Of a DNA stretch of 45,834 nt, positions 3,443 to 44,525 are shown piece after piece (within the stretch, counting starts at the first letter, position 1; each line of letters begins with the position of its first letter). Made by a program: the position numbers and the translations under genes. Origin of the DNA: a virus. Under the pieces are notes generated by a model. It was not told the DNA's origin, did not search any database, and worked only from the letters and a program-made list of their open reading frames with translations. The stretch lies in IMG/VR virus record IMGVR_UViG_3300045988_134072, positions 1 to 45,834 of that record; one strand, given 5' to 3'.

Positions 3443-3799
3443 ATGGCGATTCGAATCATGCTCCCTAGCGACGGATATTCGCCCGCGTGGGAGTGGATGA
3501 ATGCGTGGCAGCATGACGCTTTGCGAGAATGGTGGGGCAATAGCTCTCGCCTGGTTCGCGAGAGTGTGGGCGCGCCCGCGTGGGCTGAATACGTGGATAG
3601 GGACGGCGCGGCTTGGTCCCGTGAGGGGCTGCTAACGCGGCTGGTCTTTGATGCTATCGATACGTTTGGCGAGGCGCATGTTGATGCGACGATTAAGGAA
3701 CTCGGCAATGATGGCATGATTGAAATGCTTGACGGGTGGCTTGAGGCCCGCGTGTTCGCGGGTGAGCTGGTTCGCCTCGTTAGCGAGAGTGAGGCGTGA
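3443..3799 (+). CDS. hypothetical protein, GAPxWA family member 2 of 4
   Basis: VGAPAWAEYVDRDGAAW and C-terminal FAGELVRLVSE. Confidence 0.7.
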   Translation: MAIRIMLPSDGYSPAWEWMNAWQHDALREWWGNSSRLVRESVGAPAWAEYVDRDGAAWSREGLLTRLVFDAIDTFGEAHVDATIKELGNDGMIEMLDGWLEARVFAGELVRLVSESEA

Positions 3800-5039: not shown

Positions 5040-5101
5040 CGGGTTCGCGCCCAACAGGGCTGCGGACTGCATTGAAAGCCGAGTGTGAAGGTGGTGACCC
5101 C

Positions 5102-5443
5102 GTGAGGGATATCAGCAAGTGTAAGACGATGGCGGCGGGCGAGTACATGACGCCCAAGCAGGCGTATGACCTCAAAGTGACGTGGGGTGAGGCCGAGTAC
5201 GTGCTGCGTGACGCGATGAACGCGCCCGACTGGGCGCACTTCATTGACTATGAAGGTACCGCGTATTCGGTTGAGTACCTGGCGGAGGAATGGATACAAA
5301 GTGGTGCGGTAGAAGGCGAGCGAGAGCTTATGATCATGCTCTCCCCGGAGCTGACGTCCCAAATCATCTTCAAGTCCATCAGGGAGCTCGTTAAGGCGGG
5401 CGAGCTGTGCGCGATCGTGGACTCACCCGACGATTGGAAGTAA
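5102..5443 (+). CDS. hypothetical protein, GAPxWA family member 3 of 4
   Basis: NAPDWAHFIDYEGTAY and C-terminal KAGELCAIVDS. The start is uncertain: GTG 5102 after gaaggtgg, with alternatives TTG 5072 and ATG 5129. Confidence 0.6.
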   Translation: MRDISKCKTMAAGEYMTPKQAYDLKVTWGEAEYVLRDAMNAPDWAHFIDYEGTAYSVEYLAEEWIQSGAVEGERELMIMLSPELTSQIIFKSIRELVKAGELCAIVDSPDDWK

Positions 5444-5562: not shown

Positions 5563-5928
5563 ATGAATACTTTCCCCCTGTCAACCGTCAAATCCGGCTC
5601 CCAGGTCAAGGAAGATGCGCTCCCCGAAATGGTGGGCCTGTGGGATGGGCGCACGCAGTTCACGCGCAAAGAGCTGGGAGGCGCGCCCGACTGGGCGCGA
5701 TGGGTTAACCGTGACGGATACCTGTTCGACATGACTGACGTATTCGACGCGTTCAACGAAATGCTCGACTCAACACGCCCGCCCATCCAGATTGTGGGGG
5801 TGCAAATCTCCCCCCACATGGCGCTTTGGGCGCAGCCCAGCGACTACAAGCACAAGTGTTGGTGCTGGCTGGGCGACCTGATTGCTGCAGGCGAACTACG
5901 AGAGGTGGTTGACGATGCTCGCGCATGA
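5563..5928 (+). CDS. hypothetical protein, GAPxWA family member 4 of 4
   Basis: ELGGAPDWARWVNRDGYLF and C-terminal AAGELREVVDD. Confidence 0.7.
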   Translation: MNTFPLSTVKSGSQVKEDALPEMVGLWDGRTQFTRKELGGAPDWARWVNRDGYLFDMTDVFDAFNEMLDSTRPPIQIVGVQISPHMALWAQPSDYKHKCWCWLGDLIAAGELREVVDDARA

Positions 5929-7981: not shown

Positions 7982-8395
7982 ATGACACAGGAGCCAACCC
8001 CCTACACAATCACCGCACACACAAGCGACCCCGCCGCCGCGAATCTAATCCTCGCCGCAGTGATCGACGAGGCCCGCCGCACAGGCGCACAAGTCAGCAT
8101 CGGCGGGCAGGTTCCCGCCCCAAACGGGAGCATCGTCAACGTCAAGGCCGCGCAGGGCGACCAACTGGCCGAGGCTTCAAGCCTGTTCCTCACGTGGGCG
8201 GAAGCCGCCGAAAAACCCCGACTCATGCACTCGCCCGCCGACGTCGCAACCATGCTAGGCGTATCCGCCCGCACGCTGGGGGAGTGGAGGTTCACCGGCG
8301 TAGGCCCCGCATTCGTGAAAGTCGGGGGCATCGTTCGTTACCCGCACGATGCGCTCACGGACTGGATGCAGGCGAATCAGCAGACGGTCGCCTAA
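7982..8395 (+). CDS. helix-turn-helix DNA-binding protein (excisionase/MerR-like C-terminal domain)
   Basis: ADVATMLGVSARTLGEWRFTGVGPAFVKVGGIVRYPHDALTDWM matches the Xis/MerR-type winged HTH pattern. Confidence 0.7.
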   Translation: MTQEPTPYTITAHTSDPAAANLILAAVIDEARRTGAQVSIGGQVPAPNGSIVNVKAAQGDQLAEASSLFLTWAEAAEKPRLMHSPADVATMLGVSARTLGEWRFTGVGPAFVKVGGIVRYPHDALTDWMQANQQTVA

Positions 8396-8688
8396 ACACA
8401 AGGAAGCCCGCCCCGGACTGGCCTAAGCGCTTTGCGGCGAGTGTGAGAGACCGTCTAACGGCCTGCCTGGCGGGGCAAACCTGTCAGATGCGCTTGTAAT
8501 GGCTGTCCGGTGCGGGCTTCCCACACAGAACGTTCAACAGAGAAAACAGACAAACCTAGGGCGTGTCAGTACCTTGTTGTAACAGGGTTGAGTGTAGCAC
8601 TCTGCGCAGCTCAAGCGCAATACCCCAAAAGTTGGAACAAGTACCGACCAGCCCCAACAGTCCCAGAATAGGAAGGAAAATCACCAAC

Positions 8689-9042
8689 ATGGGAACTGCA
8701 TCACTCACCCGCGAACAGCTCAACGAGGCTATCGAACAGTTCGCAGACAAGATCATGGAAGCCCTCGGGGCCACCGTCACAGACGAGGAACCGGGCGAGT
8801 CGAAACTGACCGGCACCCACTTCAAGGTGATCGACATTGACGGCGTGGAATGCGTAATGGATGCCGAGGATATTGACTCGGGCACGCTTATCATGGATGG
8901 CCCGTTTGAAATCTTCCGCTGCGGCACGAGATTTGGCAGCAAACCGTGGATGCGCTACAGCGGCAGGTGGTTCACCCATGAAGAGTTTGCGCAAGAAATG
9001 CGCGACGCCGACACATTGCCCCGCATCGTCCGCCGGGGCTGA
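8689..9042 (+). CDS. small paralog family, member 1 of 12
   Basis: N-terminal helix REQLNEAIEQFADKIMEAL. Core GTLIMDG...WMRYSGRWFTHEEFAQEM. ATG follows ggaagg. Confidence 0.65.
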   Translation: MGTASLTREQLNEAIEQFADKIMEALGATVTDEEPGESKLTGTHFKVIDIDGVECVMDAEDIDSGTLIMDGPFEIFRCGTRFGSKPWMRYSGRWFTHEEFAQEMRDADTLPRIVRRG

Positions 9043-9053
9043 TCGGGGGGGCG

Positions 9054-9380
9054 ATGACAAAGCCAATCACCCTCGATGAGGCCGTGGACTTCATCAGCCG
9101 ACTATGCGCCCAATCGAACGCGCCCACGACACCGCCGAACGCGGTCTCTCTCAACGCTGTGGGCATCCCCCTGACGATGGACCTGTCCACCCTCCCGCCC
9201 GGCACACTCATTGACAGCTACGTGACGGGAGAGTTTTTCAAGGTCACGCACGACCATTGGGTAACCACGCGGACACCTAACGGACGATATACGGACGCGG
9301 ACGTCGCCACACAGGTACGCCTCGGATGGGACGCCGACCTTGAGCGGACGGACTTCAACCTCATCCACATGGGCGAATAG
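9054..9380 (+). CDS. small paralog family, member 2 of 12 (divergent)
   Basis: LSTLPPGTLIDS...FFKVTHDHWVTT...YTDADVA. Confidence 0.6.
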   Translation: MTKPITLDEAVDFISRLCAQSNAPTTPPNAVSLNAVGIPLTMDLSTLPPGTLIDSYVTGEFFKVTHDHWVTTRTPNGRYTDADVATQVRLGWDADLERTDFNLIHMGE

Positions 9381-9457
9381 CCCCCACTGCGCACGGTTTC
9401 TGGCGGAACCAAAGCGCACAACACACACAGATTAGTTCAACAAGGAAGGACAAACAC

Positions 9458-9661
9458 ATGGCATGGATGCTACTCGGCGTCGGCCTCGCAATCCTCATTA
9501 CGGGACTGACGACCGCCCTCATTGTCAAGGAAATCGACGAATGGATCGACACTAGATGCGCGCTTTCGGTCGGCAACCTGTTCAACATCATCGTCCTGGC
9601 CCTCGTCGGCTACCCCGGCGCATGGCTCACGTTCACCCACATCACGGGGGTGGGACTGTGA
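9458..9661 (+). CDS. small membrane protein (two hydrophobic helices)
   Basis: MAWMLLGVGLAILITGLTTALIV and NIIVLALVGYPGAWLTF. Confidence 0.55.
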   Translation: MAWMLLGVGLAILITGLTTALIVKEIDEWIDTRCALSVGNLFNIIVLALVGYPGAWLTFTHITGVGL

Positions 9662-9873
9662 TCGAACGAGTCACCCCCAACAACATCATCCTCCTGGCAA
9701 ACAAGTATGGAGGGGATGTCGTTAACCAGGTCACGCCCGGAGGGGTCGTGCCCCGAATCGTTTTCGGACGTCGGGATAACACGGTCAGCATCGGAGACCT
9801 GATCGGAAATACGGACGAGGGTGGAGTCATCGTGCGCCGTGAGGGTGCCCGCGAGTGGGAGGTGGTCGCATGA
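9658..9873 (+). CDS. hypothetical protein
   Basis: GTG 9658 overlaps the upstream TGA (GTGA). In frame with ORF 9556..9873. Confidence 0.45.
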   Translation: MIERVTPNNIILLANKYGGDVVNQVTPGGVVPRIVFGRRDNTVSIGDLIGNTDEGGVIVRREGAREWEVVA

Positions 9874-10175
9874 CCGTTCACGGACTGCTCGCGGCGGCGG
9901 CATCCGCCCCCGTCACTCGCACAATCCGCAACCGCGCAATGGACACCGTGCTACAGCGTGAAGGCGACGATCCAGTGTGGACGGTCAAGACTAAGAATCT
10001 TGACCTGATCCGCGCCCTAGACGAGGCGTGCTCATGCGAGCGTGGCGTGGCAATCGTGCGCTCGCACGAGATGGGCATTGTGAAGGCCGCAGAATACGAG
10101 GTCGAAGATGCGCTGCTCGCATCCCTCGTGAGTGGACTCGACGCTGATCCGTCCGACCCCCCAGCTGCGGCCTGA
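9870..10175 (+). CDS. hypothetical protein
   Basis: ATG 9870 overlaps the upstream stop (ATGA). Confidence 0.5.
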   Translation: MTVHGLLAAAASAPVTRTIRNRAMDTVLQREGDDPVWTVKTKNLDLIRALDEACSCERGVAIVRSHEMGIVKAAEYEVEDALLASLVSGLDADPSDPPAAA

Positions 10176-10255
10176 CAGGCCGTTAGGGGTGCGTCTAGGG
10201 GCCTTAACGGGCTTGCCTTGGGCGCGCCCCTAGTCTATTGGAAGGAACGCAAGCA

Positions 10256-10519
10256 ATGACCGTAGCACTCCGGCGCGCGTACACAATCGACGCCGACCCG
10301 CCGAACGTCTGCCATCCCATCATCTTCACTGACCTCATGAACCTGCCCGTAGCATACGGGACAGTCATTGTCGTGGACGGCATGGAACACATGCGCGTCC
10401 CCGAGGGGTGGATTGACGCAATGGGGAATTGGTGTACGAACGAGGAAATGCGGGAAGCCCTCACCAAAAACCCGCACGCGGCCCGAGTGGTATACAACAC
10501 CCACCGGACATCCTGCTAA
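10256..10519 (+). CDS. small paralog family, member 3 of 12
   Basis: LMNLPVAYGTVIVVDGMEHMRVPEGW...WCTNEEMREAL. ATG follows ggaagg. Confidence 0.7.
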   Translation: MTVALRRAYTIDADPPNVCHPIIFTDLMNLPVAYGTVIVVDGMEHMRVPEGWIDAMGNWCTNEEMREALTKNPHAARVVYNTHRTSC

Positions 10520-10539
10520 TCAGAAAGCGACACAAAACA

Positions 10540-10887
10540 ATGAGTCACGACAACTACCTGAACGCAATCAGCGAGGCAAAGAAACTTCTCACAGAACTAC
10601 TCAACGACCCTGAGCGCGGCAAGCTCACATTCGAGGGCATCAACGGCCTTAACGACCTGAATGTCACCGGCCCGAACAGTCTGGACGGCCTCACAACCGG
10701 GGCAGTAGTCGTGATCGACGGCGATGAATGGATGAGTCTTACCACATGCGTCGCCAGTTCGCGACAGTGGCAGTGTTTTAGGGGCGAGCTGCGAGTAACA
10801 AGCGAGGAATTGTACCTCATCGCCCTCAAAAATGCGGACGACCTGCACTACGCCCACACGGGTGACTGTTCGGGCGCGAACTTCTGA
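10540..10887 (+). CDS. small paralog family, member 4 of 12
   Basis: N-terminal helix NYLNAISEAKKLLTELL. Core GLTTGAVVVIDGDEWMSL...VTSEELY. Confidence 0.65.
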   Translation: MSHDNYLNAISEAKKLLTELLNDPERGKLTFEGINGLNDLNVTGPNSLDGLTTGAVVVIDGDEWMSLTTCVASSRQWQCFRGELRVTSEELYLIALKNADDLHYAHTGDCSGANF

Positions 10888-10908
10888 GAAAAGGAAGGAT
10901 GAACACTT

Positions 10909-11247
10909 ATGACAAGCATCGAAACCTACCAGGAACGCATCGATGCCATTAAAGCGAGCATCGAACGTCTCAAAGGCGACGGGGCGTTTGTTATCCAGAA
11001 CCTGCCCGGAAGGGCACCTCTCATAGTGCGCGAAGAAGGCGACCTATGCCTCCCGTTCGGGACGGTCATCGCCGGAAACGAGGACCACGTATACCTGCGA
11101 GCTCCACACGGGCGCATCTACTGGGAGTCGTCTAGCCGCAGCAGTGCTGAGCCGCGCGGATACAACCTCGAACGATTCTACGAATTCCTGAGCAGGCGCA
11201 CGATGATGGGCGAGCGGTTCGGCATCGTCTACCAGCCGACCGGGTAA
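10909..11247 (+). CDS. small paralog family, member 5 of 12
   Basis: YQERIDAIKASIERLK, then LCLPFGTVIAGNEDHVYLRAPHG. Confidence 0.65.
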   Translation: MTSIETYQERIDAIKASIERLKGDGAFVIQNLPGRAPLIVREEGDLCLPFGTVIAGNEDHVYLRAPHGRIYWESSSRSSAEPRGYNLERFYEFLSRRTMMGERFGIVYQPTG

Positions 11248-11259
11248 CGGGGGCTTAGC

Positions 11260-11625
11260 GTGAACAAGGACAATCCCCAGGCAACCGAGTACGAAAAAAT
11301 CCTCAAAAATATCGACGAGGCCCGCAAGGCTCTGCGCAACGCAGCAAACCCCCCAGCGGGCACAATCAACATCACAATCCCCGGCCTCGATGACCCGATC
11401 ACGGGAGAGCGCAGCCTGTGGTTCCTCCCGCCCGGCACAACAATCCACATTTCCGAGGGCGGGGCGGGAGCCGTGTACGTCCAGTCATCCGCCGCCCGCA
11501 CGCAACGGTGGGTGCGGCACGACGGGCGGCAACTGTCCGGCGAGGACATGTTCGCCGCAATCCTCAGTGCGACCGAGTTTGGCGACACGATCACCCTCCT
11601 GTCGTACGGGCTGGACCCCCTGTAA
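11260..11625 (+). CDS. small paralog family, member 6 of 12
   Basis: EYEKILKNIDEARKALRNA, then LWFLPPGTTIHISEGG...LSGEDMFAAIL. GTG start. Confidence 0.6.
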   Translation: MNKDNPQATEYEKILKNIDEARKALRNAANPPAGTINITIPGLDDPITGERSLWFLPPGTTIHISEGGAGAVYVQSSAARTQRWVRHDGRQLSGEDMFAAILSATEFGDTITLLSYGLDPL

Positions 11626-11647
11626 AAACGCCAGAAAGACAACCGAA

Positions 11648-11953
11648 ATGGACATCACGAAAGAAACCCTGATCGAACACATTGAAAACCTGTTCGACAA
11701 CATTGAAGCAGGCGAGCCAGCAGAAACCGTAGTCGAAGTCACCGCCCTTGGCGCGGAAGTCAAGCTCGACCTCTCATGCCTGGCGTACGGCGCGATCATC
11801 CTCCTTAACGGCACGCTATGGTTTAAGGAAGGCGAGGACATGTGGACCGAGAACGGCGCGGGCGGGCTTAGTTGCCTAGAGCTTGCGCAGAGCATCCGCG
11901 CAGTCGGCCCCCGCAATGCGGTGTTCCTATACAACGGCGAGGCGTATAGGTGA
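11648..11953 (+). CDS. small paralog family, member 7 of 12
   Basis: ETLIEHIENLFDNIEAGE, then LSCLAYGAIILLNGTLWFKEGEDMW. Confidence 0.6.
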   Translation: MDITKETLIEHIENLFDNIEAGEPAETVVEVTALGAEVKLDLSCLAYGAIILLNGTLWFKEGEDMWTENGAGGLSCLELAQSIRAVGPRNAVFLYNGEAYR

Positions 11954-12216
11954 CCGACGCGATCCAACTCGACATCCACTACGACTGCACGGCCAGTCAT
12001 CGCATCACAGCGCTGGAAGGCCCTGAACACCTCGCCAGCCTCATGCCCGGCACGATCATCCTCGTGAGCGGCTGGGAATACATGCGCCTAGTGGATCACG
12101 TGGGATGGGCGCACATCGACGGCAAAGTCCTAACCCACCAGGAAATGTGGAACCTGATCGTCGCCCACAAACAGGACGGGTGGCCTATCAGCCTCATCCA
12201 CGTTGGCGCAGCATAA
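11950..12216 (+). CDS. small paralog family, member 8 of 12
   Basis: LASLMPGTIILVSGWEYMRLVDHVGWAHIDGKVLTHQEMWNLI. GTG overlaps the upstream stop. Confidence 0.7.
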   Translation: MTDAIQLDIHYDCTASHRITALEGPEHLASLMPGTIILVSGWEYMRLVDHVGWAHIDGKVLTHQEMWNLIVAHKQDGWPISLIHVGAA

Positions 12217-12236
12217 ACACGCAGGAAGGAAAAAGC

Positions 12237-12593
12237 ATGCAAACCCTAATCGAAACCCTCAACCTCTACAACAACGCATTCGACGCGCTATGCGAGGCGC
12301 AAAAACTGGTCGAACAACTCGAAACAGAAACCAGCCACATCCTCGACAACAACACGGAACCAATCATAGCATCCACAGGCGAGGGCGCGACCCACATCTT
12401 CACAACACCCGCCTACCTTGAACGCCTACCCCTCGGGACCGTAATCAGCGTGGATGGCGTTGAGTACATGCGGACAGGTTACTCGCATGGCCCGTGGACA
12501 GGCTGCCTCGGGCACGAATACTCGCACCACAGGATGTTCCTCCAGATGCTTGAAGATGCAGACAAGTGCGAGATCGCCCACAAGGTCAACTAG
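12237..12593 (+). CDS. small paralog family, member 9 of 12
   Basis: LERLPLGTVISVDGVEYMRTGYSHGPW...SHHRMFLQML. ATG follows ggaaggaaa. Confidence 0.7.
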   Translation: MQTLIETLNLYNNAFDALCEAQKLVEQLETETSHILDNNTEPIIASTGEGATHIFTTPAYLERLPLGTVISVDGVEYMRTGYSHGPWTGCLGHEYSHHRMFLQMLEDADKCEIAHKVN

Positions 12594-12607
12594 ACGGATG
12601 AGAAACC

Positions 12608-12979
12608 ATGGAACCATATATTACAGAAACCGACGCTGAGAAAGCCGCGCACGAAACAGCTAAAGCAGCATACGAAACCATCCGCACAGCGCGCCGTGCC
12701 CTGCGCATGGCGCATATAGACTGTTGCGCACCCGTCCCCATCCCCACAAAGGAAGGCGGCCACCTGCAGGTGTCCAAGGCTGACGACCTGGCATGCCTGC
12801 TTAACGACACCCTGCTCTACACGTCGGATGGCCTGTATGTAAAGCATTGGAAACGGTGGCGAGGCGCATACGAGAAAATCTCCCACGAGGAAATGTGGGA
12901 GCGCATCCTCAAAGCCTACACAGATGGCTCCCTCGACGGCGAGTTTCTTCTAACCTCGCGCGAGGCGGTGGCACCGTGA
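12608..12979 (+). CDS. small paralog family, member 10 of 12
   Basis: LACLLNDTLLYTSDGLYVKHWKRW...ISHEEMWERIL. Confidence 0.65.
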   Translation: MEPYITETDAEKAAHETAKAAYETIRTARRALRMAHIDCCAPVPIPTKEGGHLQVSKADDLACLLNDTLLYTSDGLYVKHWKRWRGAYEKISHEEMWERILKAYTDGSLDGEFLLTSREAVAP

Positions 12980-13335
12980 ATCTGCAACAGCAAGCCCAGC
13001 ACATGAACAGGATCATCAAGCTGCACCAAAACCTCCTGCGCGAGGTCAGGTATGGGGAGCACATCGTCATTCCCCTCTCGCGAGACGACGGCGGCGAGGA
13101 TGTGTTGATCCGCAGCCCGCACGATCTTGCAACTCTCCCCATTGGGACACGCGTCGGCGTGTATGGAAACGAGTTTCAAGTTACGCCGGACGGCATGGCC
13201 TTCCTTGCGCGCAAGGAAATCGCGTACACGTTTGACGACTTCTGGGATGAAATGGTCGCGTATTCTGCGTACCCTCCCCGACGCCCGGAGGCCATGCCCC
13301 GCATCACGCACATGCCCGACACAGAACACAACTAA
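12976..13335 (+). CDS. small paralog family, member 11 of 12
   Basis: LATLPIGTRVGVYGNEFQVTPDG...YTFDDFWDEMV. GTG 12976 overlaps the upstream TGA. Alternative start ATG 13003. Confidence 0.6.
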   Translation: MNLQQQAQHMNRIIKLHQNLLREVRYGEHIVIPLSRDDGGEDVLIRSPHDLATLPIGTRVGVYGNEFQVTPDGMAFLARKEIAYTFDDFWDEMVAYSAYPPRRPEAMPRITHMPDTEHN

Positions 13336-13353
13336 CCCCCAATAGGAGGAAAC

Positions 13354-13701
13354 ATGATAGAAATCAACACGACGCTCGCCGAGGCTATTGCCAAGTGTGA
13401 CGAAATCAAGGACCAGCTGGAAGTCCTACGGGACATGCTCAAGCCTAAGCCTGTCCTGCGGCTTGAGTCCATCACCCGCCCAGGCGACTACTGGGAGCTG
13501 CGCTCGGAGGACGGCCTGATCAACTGCATGCACGGGACGGTCATCATCATGTCAAACGGCTGTCGATTCTTCCGCGTTGCCGACTCGCTTAAACCCTGGA
13601 TTACCAGCGGAGGGCTAGGCTTATCGTCGCTAGCCCTGTGGGGTAATCTCAATAATGTAGTCAGTCAAGGCGTCACACTCAAGTACCTTGCAGCCAACTA
13701 G
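13354..13701 (+). CDS. small paralog family, member 12 of 12
   Basis: LAEAIAKCDEIKDQLEVLRDML, then LINCMHGTVIIMSNGCRFFRVADSLKPW. Confidence 0.6.
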   Translation: MIEINTTLAEAIAKCDEIKDQLEVLRDMLKPKPVLRLESITRPGDYWELRSEDGLINCMHGTVIIMSNGCRFFRVADSLKPWITSGGLGLSSLALWGNLNNVVSQGVTLKYLAAN

Positions 13702-13714
13702 ACCGCACTCACAA

Positions 13715-13805
13715 GCGGCCCCCTCGTAAGGGAGACCAGCACTCAACCCGCCCCACACGGGGGTGGTGAGAGTAACGGTTCTCTCCTGCGAGGGGGCCGC
13801 TTTTT
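13715..13805 (+). terminator. long compound hairpin closed by a 12-bp GC stem and followed by TTTTT
   Basis: gcggccccctcg (13715-13726) pairs with cgagggggccgc (13789-13800), then ttttt. The interior carries further pairings. It sits between the paralog array and int. Confidence 0.5.
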
Positions 13806-13876
13806 GCTACCCTCAAAACGGGCAACGCGTGTTACGATACTGGCAACCAAGCCCCCGCGCAGGAAGGTTCACGATC

Positions 13877-15046
13877 ATGGCAAGGCGAGCGCTCCAACCA
13901 GGCGAACTAGGCAACATCACCACCACCAAAGTCTCTAAACAAGGCAAAGCATGGACCGTTAGTGCGGACGGCACGCACTGGCGAGCGAGCGTCCTTATCG
14001 GCCAACGCGGCAACACCCCCAAACGCATCCGCACCATCGCAACCAGCAAACGCCAAGCCATCCGGCAATGCGAGGAACAAGCTAAACAGTACATTGACGA
14101 CGCCAAACGCGCATCCGGCGTCATCACCCCACAAAGCACGCCCACGGAAGTCTGGGACACATACGTGCGATCCCGTCGCCACCAAGCCCTCGCACCGGCC
14201 ACCAGACGCAACTACGAGACCGCCGTGGCCGATAGTCAACGCGAAAACCCGCACTGGTGGAACCTCCCCCTTAACGAGGCAGTCACCGTGTCAGCCCTCA
14301 CCACACTCTACGACGGGTATGTTGCCAGGCATGGGAGCGGGCGCGCTAAGAATAGCCTGCGGGCCGCACTAGGCGTCGCCCTCAAGCTCGCATCCGACGC
14401 CGTCAACCTCTCATCATTCCGCTCCACATGGCCCACAGAGTCCCCCATCACAAACCCCGTACGCGCAAGGCTAGACGGCGACCGCATCCTCACCCCCGCC
14501 GAAATGCGCACCCTCATAGCCACACTCGAACAGTACGACGCCAAGCGAATCCCCGAACAGGACGCGATAGACGCCCTCATCCTCCAAACCCACCTAGGCG
14601 TGCGCGCGGGGGAGCTGTTCTCTCTCACATGGGGGAACATCGACCTCAACGATGGCATAGTGCGCGGCGTTGAGTCCCGCAAGACTCACCGCACGTACCC
14701 GGACAAGACCCTGCCCGAATGGCAAGCCGACAGGCTACGCGCCAGAGCGGGGAAAGCCCGACACCTGACCCCGGATACTCGCCTGTTCGACCGTGCGCAA
14801 GCAACCATGTACAGAGAGTGTCGGCTGCTTCTCAACAAGCTCAACCTACAAGACATGTCAATCCACGGCATCCGCAAATCTGTGGGCAGTATCGTGTTTG
14901 ACACTTACGGGGCAAGGGCGGCGGCAGCATGGCTCGCACACTCGAACGTGCAAACCACTATCGCCTACTACGTGAAGCTAGACGGCGCGATGCCGGAAGG
15001 CCCTGTTGACCTGCTCAATTACGGCGAACAGGAAAACGGGCAATAA
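13877..15046 (+). CDS. int: tyrosine integrase / site-specific recombinase
   Basis: LGVRAGELFSLTWGNIDL (Arg box), HGIRKS and LAHSNVQTTIAYYV (His-x-x-Arg and Tyr boxes). ATG 13877 is 9 nt after aggaagg. Confidence 0.9.
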   Translation: MARRALQPGELGNITTTKVSKQGKAWTVSADGTHWRASVLIGQRGNTPKRIRTIATSKRQAIRQCEEQAKQYIDDAKRASGVITPQSTPTEVWDTYVRSRRHQALAPATRRNYETAVADSQRENPHWWNLPLNEAVTVSALTTLYDGYVARHGSGRAKNSLRAALGVALKLASDAVNLSSFRSTWPTESPITNPVRARLDGDRILTPAEMRTLIATLEQYDAKRIPEQDAIDALILQTHLGVRAGELFSLTWGNIDLNDGIVRGVESRKTHRTYPDKTLPEWQADRLRARAGKARHLTPDTRLFDRAQATMYRECRLLLNKLNLQDMSIHGIRKSVGSIVFDTYGARAAAAWLAHSNVQTTIAYYVKLDGAMPEGPVDLLNYGEQENGQ

Positions 15047-15198
15047 GTGGGCAACCCGCCGTCTGGCAGGTAGGCCATATTGTTGGAATCATGCGGGAAA
15101 CCGGCCTACAAATCATAGTACATCTGGTACTCGATAGGCAAGGTTACAAGCGTTGCGCAAACTCCCTGACCATAGGCCGTTTCACCAATGATGGCAAC

Positions 15199-42379: not shown

Positions 42380-44104
42380 CTAGAACCGGAAGAACGACCC
42401 CCCGGCCTTCGCAACCGGCCTCGACGCCATCTCCGTCTGATAGTCCCTATAAGCCCCAAACGCGAGCATTGCCGCCGCGTACATGTCGATCTTCTTTTTC
42501 GATTCACGACCGGCCTTCATAAACGACACGCCATACGGCGTATCCTTACGCAACACATTCAACACATGACGACGGAACGACGCCGCCAACTCGCGCGAAC
42601 CACCATGCGACACCTTACCGTCAAGAATCGCCGCCATAAACGCCTCATGCAAGTTCACCGTCCGCTTACGAGAACCACGCATATCCCACGCAATCGGACC
42701 CCGGTCCGACGCGCGAGCCACAAGCCGCTCACCATAATCCAGCGTCCACTCATGAATGTACGACTCCCACAACGCAACGTCCGCATAGAACCCAACGACG
42801 TCGTAATCACGGAAGCAACGGTGGACCATCGAGTCCACGCGTTCACGGTCAACCTCCCAGTCGCCCGCAAGGTCCAGAGGCTTCTCATCCAACAACAGGG
42901 GAACCATCAAACCATCCGACACGCGAATAGCCACCAGCGCCGTAGAGTCATCAGACTTACCGCCGTCGAACCCGAGCACGATCCTGTCACCCGGCTCCAA
43001 CGTCGCCTTACGCTCAATACGCTTCCACTCAGCCGACGAGAACAAATTACCCTCAGGCTGCCACACCTGATTCAAGTACATGCGACGCGACTCCGACGTC
43101 GGACGCGACGGATTCAACACCGACCGCCACGCCTCATCAGCATCACACCACACCGAATCCCCACGCACAGCGTTATACAAAACCTTGAACACGCGCTCAT
43201 CCAACGGCGTATCATCCGGGGCCTCCAACGAGTCATAGAAAACATCGTTATCCGTCGTCAGCCCCTCCAACGTCCTCATGTACGCCTCGCGGTCATTCTC
43301 AGCAACACTACCCTCGCCAGGCTTGTAGGCGTTAGTGATAGCGAGGTAACGGGCCTTCATCTTCGTCGTATTGCCCTCAACCGTATTCTTCAACTGCTGC
43401 CCATTATTCTGAGGCAACCAGTGTTGCGTCTCGTTTAGCAGTGCAAAAGTACAACGGTTGCCCTCCGTCGAACGGAACGATGACGTCTTAACCTCAATAC
43501 GCGCCGTGTTGTTACAACCACGCACAATCTGCAAACGCACATCCACGCCATACTTCGCACGCAACCGGTCACCAACAAGCACATGGAACATATCGAACGT
43601 ATTGCTCGTTTGCTCCTGCTTCAACGCGAAAATCTGCACCAACGCCTGCGGACACCTACGCCCAACAGGCTCACCATCCGAACCCCAACCAGCAAACCTC
43701 GACGGACCAAACGCCTCCACCAAACACAGAACAGCAAGCAACGGGTCCTTACCCCAACCCTTAATCCGCTGCAAAACACCACGACGTCGGTAAATGAACT
43801 TACCCTCATCATCAACCGCATACCACCACAACACGATACGCAACTGCTCAAGCGTAAACTCAAAAACATCCTGGTCCGCGCCCAACGGCTCCAAGTAATC
43901 CGAACACCACCGGGCAATCTCCCAACCCAACGTATGCTCAGGCAACACAAACCGGCCATCCTCGCCACGCTCCCACGTCGGCCCATAATGCACCGGCGCG
44001 AAACGCTCAAGAATCTCCGCGTCAGACAAACCATCATAGGGACCCGCAGGGGGTGTCCCAGCCTTATCAACATCGACCAAAACCAGGACACCCCCCAACC
44101 CCAT
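42380..44104 (-). CDS. terL: terminase large subunit
   Basis: 575 aa from ATG 44104. The ORF-track N-terminal extension to 44509 runs through a tRNA gene and was trimmed. Confidence 0.9.
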   Translation of the reverse strand: MGLGGVLVLVDVDKAGTPPAGPYDGLSDAEILERFAPVHYGPTWERGEDGRFVLPEHTLGWEIARWCSDYLEPLGADQDVFEFTLEQLRIVLWWYAVDDEGKFIYRRRGVLQRIKGWGKDPLLAVLCLVEAFGPSRFAGWGSDGEPVGRRCPQALVQIFALKQEQTSNTFDMFHVLVGDRLRAKYGVDVRLQIVRGCNNTARIEVKTSSFRSTEGNRCTFALLNETQHWLPQNNGQQLKNTVEGNTTKMKARYLAITNAYKPGEGSVAENDREAYMRTLEGLTTDNDVFYDSLEAPDDTPLDERVFKVLYNAVRGDSVWCDADEAWRSVLNPSRPTSESRRMYLNQVWQPEGNLFSSAEWKRIERKATLEPGDRIVLGFDGGKSDDSTALVAIRVSDGLMVPLLLDEKPLDLAGDWEVDRERVDSMVHRCFRDYDVVGFYADVALWESYIHEWTLDYGERLVARASDRGPIAWDMRGSRKRTVNLHEAFMAAILDGKVSHGGSRELAASFRRHVLNVLRKDTPYGVSFMKAGRESKKKIDMYAAAMLAFGAYRDYQTEMASRPVAKAGGSFFRF

Positions 44105-44114
44105 CAACACACAG

Positions 44115-44200
44115 TACCCGTGGCGGGACTCGAACCCGCACGCCCCCCTGGGGCGCCACATTTTGAGTGTGGTGTGTCTACCTAATTCCACCACACGGGC
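44115..44200 (-). tRNA. tRNA-Leu(CAA), class II, no encoded CCA
   Basis: Hand fold: acceptor gcccgtg/cacgggt (G1-U72), 3-bp D stem with a GG loop, anticodon arm ccaca-cuCAAaa-tgtgg (anticodon at 44163-44165), long variable arm cgcccc/ggggcg, T arm gcggg-ttcgagt-cccgc. Confidence 0.85.
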
Positions 44201-44488
44201 CAAAGATGAACCCCCCAGCGCAAACCGCCAGGGGGGTGGCCGCGAGGCGAACCCCGCTACCACTACCAAGAAAATGCCCCCGCCGTATAGCCGTCGTGCT
44301 CGCGCGCCACGCCGCGACCCAAGGCCGCGACTCGCCGTTTCAGCGTACGGGGGCCACCAAAATCCCAACCAACCCCACACAGGGGCGGAAAGGAACAAAG
44401 AATCTCCAACCCACTCCACGCAAACGCGCGGGCGGGTTGAAAACAGCCCCGCCACCCCACACGAGGCAACGAGGGAATACCAGAACTC

Positions 44489-44525
44489 CGGCCCGAACCC
44501 ACACCCCATTGTGTAGGCCGGGCCG
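44489..44525 (-). other. long imperfect hairpin downstream of the redoxin gene
   Basis: About 15 bp of pairing on the - strand (cggcccggcctacac...gtgtgggttcgggccg). No clear U-run follows. Confidence 0.3.

Follow-up and report, generated by a model that had tools for sequence, protein, structure and literature searches.

The DNA described here is IMG/VR virus record IMGVR_UViG_3300045988_134072, a stretch of 45,834 nucleotides that was analysed in full and is called the window throughout. It comprises the roughly complete genome of a temperate, siphovirus-like phage in which twelve small genes, all encoding diverged copies of one protein, lie in tandem between an excisionase-like gene (xis) and the gene for a tyrosine integrase (int). 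Table 1 presents an overview of this locus. From the letters and their translations alone, an earlier note had described the twelve as paralogs that occupy about a tenth of the genome beside the integrase of a temperate phage and are interrupted by three unrelated genes, and that description has held. Each of the twelve open reading frames (ORFs) is present on the + strand at the start proposed for it, with a product of 87-123 amino acids (aa). The array spans 5,013 bp, or 10.9% of the window (family coding sequence, 4,008 bp), and the integrase matches PF00589 in a phage that has integrated copies in Actinomyces assemblies. The region common to the twelve proteins appears to be a previously undescribed domain that is widespread in phages, where it recurs as arrays of small genes and as repeats inside giant proteins.

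Table 1. Features of the xis-int locus in the window. Bits are leave-one-out profile scores with the rank of the left-out member; L numbers denote related loci and contigs.
Feature	Position	Strand	Details
xis, excisionase-like helix-turn-helix (HTH) gene upstream of the array	7982..8395	+	Pfam HTH_17 5.6e-8; PHROG 66 'excisionase and transcriptional regulator'
Conserved structured leader, xis to first member	8396..8688	+	~294 bp; holds 17-nt inverted repeat
Member 1	8689..9042	+	117 aa, pI 4.6; 20.2 bits, rank 1; orthologs 53-65% identical
Member 2	9054..9380	+	108 aa; 19.8 bits, rank 1; slot absent from L001
First interrupting gene	9458-9661	+	unrelated to family; 67 aa, hydrophobic
Middle interrupting gene	about 9658-9873	+	unrelated to family
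Third interrupting gene	about 9870-10175	+	unrelated to family
Member 3	10256..10519	+	87 aa, as are its orthologs; no long N-terminal helix; 27.7 bits, rank 1; slot missing in L008, L013, L015
Member 4	10540..10887	+	115 aa; 20.1 bits, rank 1
Member 5	10909..11247	+	112 aa; weakest; 13.6 bits, rank 1; best decoy 10.5; orthologs in same slot of all relatives, matched by family profile
Member 6	11260..11625	+	121 aa, GTG start; 28.8 bits, rank 1
Member 7	11648..11953	+	101 aa, pI 4.2; 25.3 bits, rank 1
Member 8	11950..12216	+	88 aa, core domain only; 43.1 bits, rank 1; AlphaFold pLDDT 89.8
Member 9 (g12237, reference copy)	12237..12593	+	118 aa; 38.4 bits, rank 1; AlphaFold pLDDT 94.4; >50 orthologs in metagenomes
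Member 10	12608..12979	+	123 aa; 19.3 bits, rank 1; slot absent from L001, L006, L015
Member 11	12976..13335	+	119 aa, GTG start; 15.6 bits, rank 1; best decoy 11.0
Member 12	13354..13701	+	115 aa; 25.8 bits, rank 1
Large hairpin and T-run, after last member and before int	13713..13812	+	23-nt arms 13713-13735 / 13780-13802
Tyrosine integrase int	13877..15046	+	PF00589, 8e-11; 81-87% identical in relatives
attP core, approximate	15090..15138		phage-borne 3' end of host glnA (...EYQMYYDL*)

Since the members, named here by their start positions, are only 17-28% identical to the reference copy g12237, their common ancestry was put to a leave-one-out test. A hidden Markov model (HMM) built from eleven members was run against the twelfth, to which were added 367 other ORFs from the six frames of the window and a further 2,400 sequences made by shuffling the family. 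The left-out member ranked first in all twelve runs at 13.6-43.1 bits, and no decoy exceeded 11.0 bits, which upholds statistically the common descent that had been claimed. The lowest scores are those of g10909 (13.6 bits) and g12976 (15.6 bits), the slot orthologs of which in other phages are matched by the family HMM as well. No further member was found by this HMM among the six-frame ORFs of the window, and more diverged members among the upstream small genes were considered and rejected, their E-values being at least 0.009 in a set of 35 sequences. Two array gene pairs overlap from stop to start (11950/11953 and 12976/12979), which suggests translational coupling. A motif resembling a ribosome-binding site, AAGGAAGGA, recurs before several array genes (8669-8684, 9442-9457 and 10891-10906).

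An alignment made with MAFFT gives the core common to the family as DL..LP.GT.I...G.E(Y/W).R...W....G...T.EE, in which the fold-defining L, G and W residues are nearly invariant. With pI values of 4.2-6.1, the twelve proteins are all acidic, and inspection by eye, no transmembrane or signal-peptide predictor having been applied, showed no long hydrophobic stretch in them. The AlphaFold2 model of g12237, computed from a 132-sequence alignment, is confident at a predicted local distance difference test (pLDDT) score of 94.4 and places a long helix (residues 4-37) ahead of a beta hairpin, a short helix, three strands, a C-terminal helix and a final strand. The 88-aa product of g11950 is modelled with the same core and no long helix at a pLDDT of 89.8. 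The models thus predict a domain of ~75 aa with a small beta core and a C-terminal helix, to which an N-terminal helix is added in 10 of the 12 copies; alignment and models agree in this respect with the helix-plus-core architecture first noticed by eye. Foldseek searches with the full-length and core-only models found no significant match in the Protein Data Bank (PDB). The best matches of the core-only model were SH3-like barrels (the MscS beta domain, a SAND domain and domain I of EF-P/eIF5A), all non-significant at E >=0.7 and a template-modelling (TM) score of <=0.47. In BFVD, all Foldseek matches were to uncharacterised proteins from uncultured Siphoviridae, with several in the same phage.

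Searches against known families agree with the earlier claim that the proteins contain no recognised domain. No family was matched in Pfam-A 2025 (best E 0.12, one member only) or in PHROGs v4 (best E 0.023, one member, to a function-unknown family), and NCBIfam 20 gave no match for the members. PADLOC-DB 2.0 yielded no defence match beyond a single chance-level E of 0.045 between one member and a methyltransferase (MTase) model. Profile searches of PDB sequences with three different alignments produced chance matches only. None of the anti-defence families covered by Pfam (ArdA, Ocr and DUF2829 among them) was matched, nor was any MuF or toxin domain found in the members by Pfam. An operon of the anti-CRISPR kind would have an aca HTH gene downstream; no HTH or aca-like gene follows the array, the next gene being int. 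Among 50,697 GenBank phages, Megablast with the array and 20 kb of the late region found no match, and tblastn with one member, two distant relatives and the repeat consensus found nothing significant, the best match (E 0.3) being to hypothetical proteins of Arthrobacter phages.

The comparison with related phages shows how the array has changed over time. It stands at the same place in all 13 related loci, with 9, 11, 12 or 13-14 members, and each member corresponds to a syntenic slot. The slots of g9054, g10256, g11260, g11648, g12608 and g12976 are absent from some phages, while extra g8689-like and g11950-like copies are present in some relatives; slots are therefore gained and lost between close relatives over a range of 9-14 copies. 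Identity between the window copies and their same-slot orthologs is 38-91%, as compared with 81-87% for int and 81-89% for xis. By the Nei-Gojobori method, family median dN/dS is 0.27-0.53 (dN 0.17-0.49), which is below 1 gene-wide and above the 0.12-0.17 (dN 0.06-0.08) of int, xis and three other neighbours. The family genes are thus functional and under purifying but relaxed selection, evolving 2-4 times faster than the neighbouring core genes. With same-slot orthologs in related phages and dN/dS values below 1, the ORFs are real genes. Recent gene amplification was considered and rejected because DNA similarity between copies is limited to the motif, at 73-79% identity; the duplications are ancient. 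Within slots, the N-terminal helix is conserved at least as well as the core in seven of the ten helix-bearing cases, and the core surface is more variable, with most of the change in the beta1-beta2 hairpin and the loops. The helix itself is specific to each paralog.

These patterns bear on a reading in which the array consists of the decaying leftovers of a fragmented multi-repeat gene, or of neutral selfish duplications with no current function. The domain is common to arrays and tandem-repeat proteins, and the stop-to-start overlaps are compatible with fission of a longer gene. Nevertheless, across many phages the frame of each slot has stayed open, unchanged in length and with a start codon of its own, under the constraint measured above (dN/dS 0.27-0.53). 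Moreover, paralogs that are 17-28% identical to the reference are conserved within slots, and their slot-specific N-terminal helices are the best-conserved parts. Such an origin without function is very improbable.

Homologs were found well beyond this phage clade. A word-indexed search retrieved 226 small homologs, all on metagenomic contigs of the clade, and an exhaustive profile search of 1.84 billion representatives gave 86 matches (cluster representatives), which include both divergent small-gene arrays and repeats in giant proteins. The divergent small members form tandem arrays of 4-8 members in contigs of 47-51% GC: L019 and L020 have six to seven within 2.7-3.4 kb, L024 has four, and in L025 (7670-10682) eight lie side by side where an 86-kb contig of 51% GC ends. 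This 86-kb contig also encodes RecA, RuvC, dCMP deaminase and a MazG-like pyrophosphohydrolase, and no cultured relative of it was found. Since the arrays occur in contigs of quite different composition, the array habit is a property of the family that is not tied to integrases.

Multi-repeat proteins account for 25 of the 86 matches. They range from about 200 to 3,700 aa, and in them the core, at about 75-85 aa, is present in 2-16 copies. The giants have 5-16 of these, and the copies often follow one another without a break, up to 10-12 of them in a row. P0126 reads NUDIX, repeats, UvrD helicase, repeats and ADP-ribosyltransferase (ADPrib_exo_Tox). In P0139, the gene for which comes immediately after one for Phage_Mu_F, six repeats are combined with a C-terminal ADP-ribosyltransferase (ART). 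P0123 is encoded between Portal_Mu and Mu-like protease genes, P0177 joins ART and NUDIX domains beside NAD-salvage genes, and P0134 consists almost wholly of repeats and lies in an early region with a single-stranded DNA-binding protein (SSB) gene. Pfam found no match over the repeat regions of these giant relatives, and the domain did not match the Pfam models named 'large polyvalent protein-associated domain'. Compared by hhalign, the window paralogs and the giant-protein repeats are related at 97% probability (E 8e-11), and an HMM built from the giant-protein repeats only recovers 9 of the 12 window members above all 2,767 decoys; both comparisons are partly circular, as the giant segments were first chosen with the window profile. 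Even so, the raw sequences of the giant proteins plainly show a recurring motif, LD.LP.GT.I....G..Y.K...G.W....G. A homolog search with the giant-repeat alignment returned nothing at E <=1e-3, and family HMMs run over the window ORFs found no giant repeat protein in the window phage. From these comparisons, the family core is a domain that recurs inside polyvalent proteins beside enzymatic effector domains.

Some details of the giant-repeat phages (L021 2038-4677 and 9860-10780; L022 926-3331) deserve mention in their own right. The gene for P0139 is followed by a small ORF and then by an ADP-ribosylglycohydrolase gene, the product of which is possibly an antidote to the ART-bearing giant. One portal gene is fused to a NUDIX domain. 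Another giant gene lies beside NAD-salvage-like genes for NAMPT/NAPRTase and a phosphoribosyltransferase. The possibility that the array encodes immunity proteins for a toxin is unlikely, as the family matches the repeat region and not the ORF downstream of the toxin (L021).

The domain might instead have no host target and be a structural part, such as a spacer, a chaperone or a packaging adaptor; virion assembly or DNA ejection would then be the task of the stand-alone copies. In favor of this, giant head-module genes string together as many as 10-12 copies, each of about 75-85 aa, like beads. Against such a structural role, about 7 kb or more separates the array, which is in the small-gene arm between xis and int, from the morphogenesis genes, and the window phage lacks a giant repeat protein for the copies to serve. 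Copy-number variation between close relatives and a rate of evolution 2-4 times that of int are, in addition, rare for structural genes. We regard an assembly function as quite improbable.

Turning to the boundaries of the array, the leader upstream has a mean column identity of 89% across 7 phages, which is above that of the flanking coding sequence. Its predicted fold is stable (minimum free energy (MFE) -110 kcal/mol, z = -3.84 against shuffled sequence), and the arms of its 17-nt inverted repeat (8402-8418 / 8505-8521) are 86 nt apart. The leader has no match in Rfam, and RNAalifold gave a stable fold with no covariation because the region is too conserved. An RNA element was considered for this region and, with a stable fold but neither covariation nor an Rfam match, that claim cannot be upheld; the leader could be a promoter/operator region, a terminator (U-less) or an RNA element. 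On the downstream side, the large hairpin is kept at 80-89% in all relatives and is terminator-like, and we infer that it may function as one. It lies inside the longest int ORF, and because the frame that opens at GTG 13763 (427 aa) would include it, the true start of int is probably ATG 13877 (389 aa). With a conserved leader on one side and the closing hairpin on the other, the array looks like a discrete cassette between conserved non-coding elements.

The three small genes within the array stand at the same place in relatives and have no family HMM, Pfam or PHROG match. The first apparently contains two membrane-spanning stretches and is 55-94% conserved. The middle gene is 82-92% conserved with a dN/dS of 0.12. 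The third (9870-10175) occurs as two very different alleles, relatives being about 80% or about 30% identical.

In the remainder of the genome, the - strand carries the small terminase gene (PF25673), a 1,737-aa ORF that is the probable tape measure, and replication genes (Toprim, AAA_25, RNase_H-like). The + strand carries a long arm of small, function-unassigned genes that ends in xis, the array and int. Elements of the same architecture occur as free phage contigs of about 45 kb and as prophages abutting the host genes glnA-uvrC-rapZ-yvcK-whiA, with glnA flanking int in L001 and L003. The integrated copies L001, L003 and L015 cease to be homologous to the window at about 15138, beyond which the free forms L002 and L006 run on; the counterpart of the attP/glnA 3'-end site in L001 is at 12476-12540. 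As attP overlaps a copy of the last glnA codons, integration would replace and restore the 3' end of glnA. Temperate status is established by the tyrosine recombinase, the excisionase-type HTH protein and the integrated form with its host junction. Prophages abut glnA in Actinomyces assemblies, with homology ending within the glnA copy, and on this basis the host is assigned from sequence to Actinomyces; close relatives of the integrase occur in two species-representative genomes, both of 'uncultured Actinomyces sp.' A phage repressor or lysis-lysogeny switch was not located in the window.

Four further observations concern the window outside the array. A second, unrelated paralog family of about 105-120 aa is present as four dispersed + strand copies (2348-2851, 3443-3799, 5072-5443 and 5563-5928) with the motif ELGGAPDWAEYVD..G...GEL, phmmer E-values down to 1e-15 and no Pfam match. 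It came to light in the search for more diverged array members, and it brings the number of multi-copy families in the small-gene arm to at least two. The cumulative GC skew peaks near 7-8 kb, so that the array and int are on the C-rich strand and differ in this from the other + strand genes at 1-7 kb. The first kilobase (1-1000) is AT-rich, at 50.5% GC against about 60% elsewhere. A tRNA-Leu(CAA) gene at 44114-44200 (- strand) falls inside a 709-aa ORF (42380-44509) that has no Pfam match and of which the real start is probably downstream of the tRNA gene.

In its integrated form, the array lies at the extreme end of the prophage beside int and attR. This position, together with a conserved upstream element of its own, a closing hairpin, an embedded small hydrophobic protein that apparently spans the membrane, and a turnover of slots resembling that of known defence hotspots, would suit a moron block expressed during lysogeny, from which the lysogen would gain protection or some other benefit. 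Examples would be the exclusion of superinfecting phages and defence against phages of other kinds, and one route might be the binding of homologous repeat regions in the giant proteins that an incoming phage injects. On the other hand, there is no PADLOC match, arrays are also found in contexts lacking an integrase, among them the 86-kb contig with its genes for RecA, RuvC and nucleotide metabolism, the array shares its orientation with xis, normally an induction-time gene, and the domain is found in offensive head-module proteins of phages. A moron block of this kind is unlikely on balance.

The interpretation we favor is that the domain is a protein-binding module that phages use against the host cell in two formats. 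In the first, tandem repeats would form part of giant effectors with ADP-ribosyltransferase, NUDIX or UvrD domains that are probably packaged in the virion. In the second, that of the window phage, a battery of separately translated single-domain proteins would be made in the infected or induced cell. Each paralog may have a different target in the host or in a rival phage, for the purpose of host takeover or counter-defence, and the array may be expressed early after infection or induction as a single transcription unit. Binding activity, targets, early expression and single-unit transcription are all inferred. Taken as a whole, the reading of the array as a repertoire of cytoplasmic binding proteins at the phage-host interface is tentative, with a probability of about 0.42. 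The link to biological conflict is supported by the repetition of the domain in giant ART/NUDIX/UvrD proteins that are encoded beside portal or MuF genes.

Several results weigh against this interpretation. Family, structure and PDB searches found no functional homology of any kind, there is no homology to defence systems (PADLOC) or to anti-defence families covered by Pfam, and gene-wide dN/dS below 1 means no gene-wide positive selection. The duplications are ancient and syntenic, not a recent expansion. A promoter scan of the leader found no convincing sigma-70-type promoter. The profile comparisons that tie the array to the giants are partly circular, and guilt by association is weak in any case, as tandem small domains in giant proteins can be inert spacers. 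Lastly, the position beside int and the flanking elements of the array would fit a moron expressed in lysogeny equally well. The suggestion in the earlier note that the array marks an arms-race interface is accordingly supported in part and has firmer ground than before: faster evolution (2-4x the dN/dS of int and xis), slot turnover and the giant conflict proteins speak for it, while the gene-wide dN/dS, the failure to find defence or anti-defence homology and the age of the duplications speak against it. As between host takeover, anti-defence and exclusion, the data do not discriminate.

A bolder proposal, which is doubtful as it stands, would make the domain a new and widespread target-recognition module for counter-defence or host takeover, with arrays and giant injected effectors interconvertible by gene fission and fusion. 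The twelve paralogs would then amount to an inherited set of binders in which the slot-specific N-terminal helix serves each as its address, and they might form hetero-oligomers that mimic the giants.

If the protein-binding interpretation is true, the locus defines a large, uncharacterised domain family of phages with a confident predicted fold that has no solved relative. It would also bring a clear evolutionary signature of ancient tandem paralogs, slot turnover and surface diversification, and a direct link to the poorly understood giant effectors that phages deliver from the virion. Elsewhere the module is embedded in proteins that reach about 3,700 residues, whereas the window phage has it as twelve small, soluble proteins that can each be expressed alone, and the binding partners of the module are thereby accessible to experiment. 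Few hotspots are known in the temperate phages of oral and gut Actinobacteria, and to these the array adds a well-delimited variable accessory locus beside int.

Uncharacterised small phage genes are common and accessory clusters beside int are a known kind, and small-gene clusters such as the b/ea region of lambda beside int-xis, the host-takeover module of SPO1 and anti-CRISPR operons are familiar examples. The array resembles these in comprising small, fast-evolving genes that look non-essential, and the lambda cluster is likewise next to int and xis. However, those clusters mix unrelated genes, whereas the array is a single family and is not followed by an aca-like regulator. A second comparison is with the tandem multigene families of large DNA viruses, such as the 'genomic accordions' of poxviruses and the MGF360/505 families of African swine fever virus (ASFV). 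There too, one fold is repeated in tandem, copy number varies among strains and evolution is faster than in core genes. In the array, by contrast, the duplications are ancient and syntenic (paralogs about 20% identical, slot orthologs 40-90%), and the genome is that of a 46-kb phage. Small beta-barrel domains of the SH3-like kind provide the top Foldseek matches of the core, with the non-significant scores given above (E >=0.7, TM <=0.47).

The closest parallels are with proteins that are thought to be packaged in the phage head and injected with the DNA as weaponry in biological conflicts, namely the giant polyvalent proteins and MuF-associated toxins (PMC5512222, PMC5576092). The giant relatives P0126, P0139 and P0177 appear, from their architecture and context, to fit the definition of polyvalent proteins (Iyer et al. 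2017, PMC5512222), as the core is present in multiple copies in giant NUDIX/UvrD/ART proteins beside portal or MuF genes. The window proteins are not polyvalent themselves, being single-domain products of 87-123 aa from a small-gene arm. Similarly, P0139 recalls the MuF polymorphic toxins (Jamet et al. 2017, PMC5576092), since its gene follows Phage_Mu_F, its product ends in an ART domain, and a small ORF and an ADP-ribosylglycohydrolase come next. In the window, on the other hand, there is no MuF-toxin fusion carrying the domain, and the family corresponds to the repeat region of these systems and not to their MuF, toxin or immunity parts. Three features are unusual in the present case: a single family of 9-14 ancient, syntenic paralogs takes up 11% of a 46-kb genome, the tandem-array habit recurs in unrelated phages, and the same domain is multiplied inside giant effector proteins.

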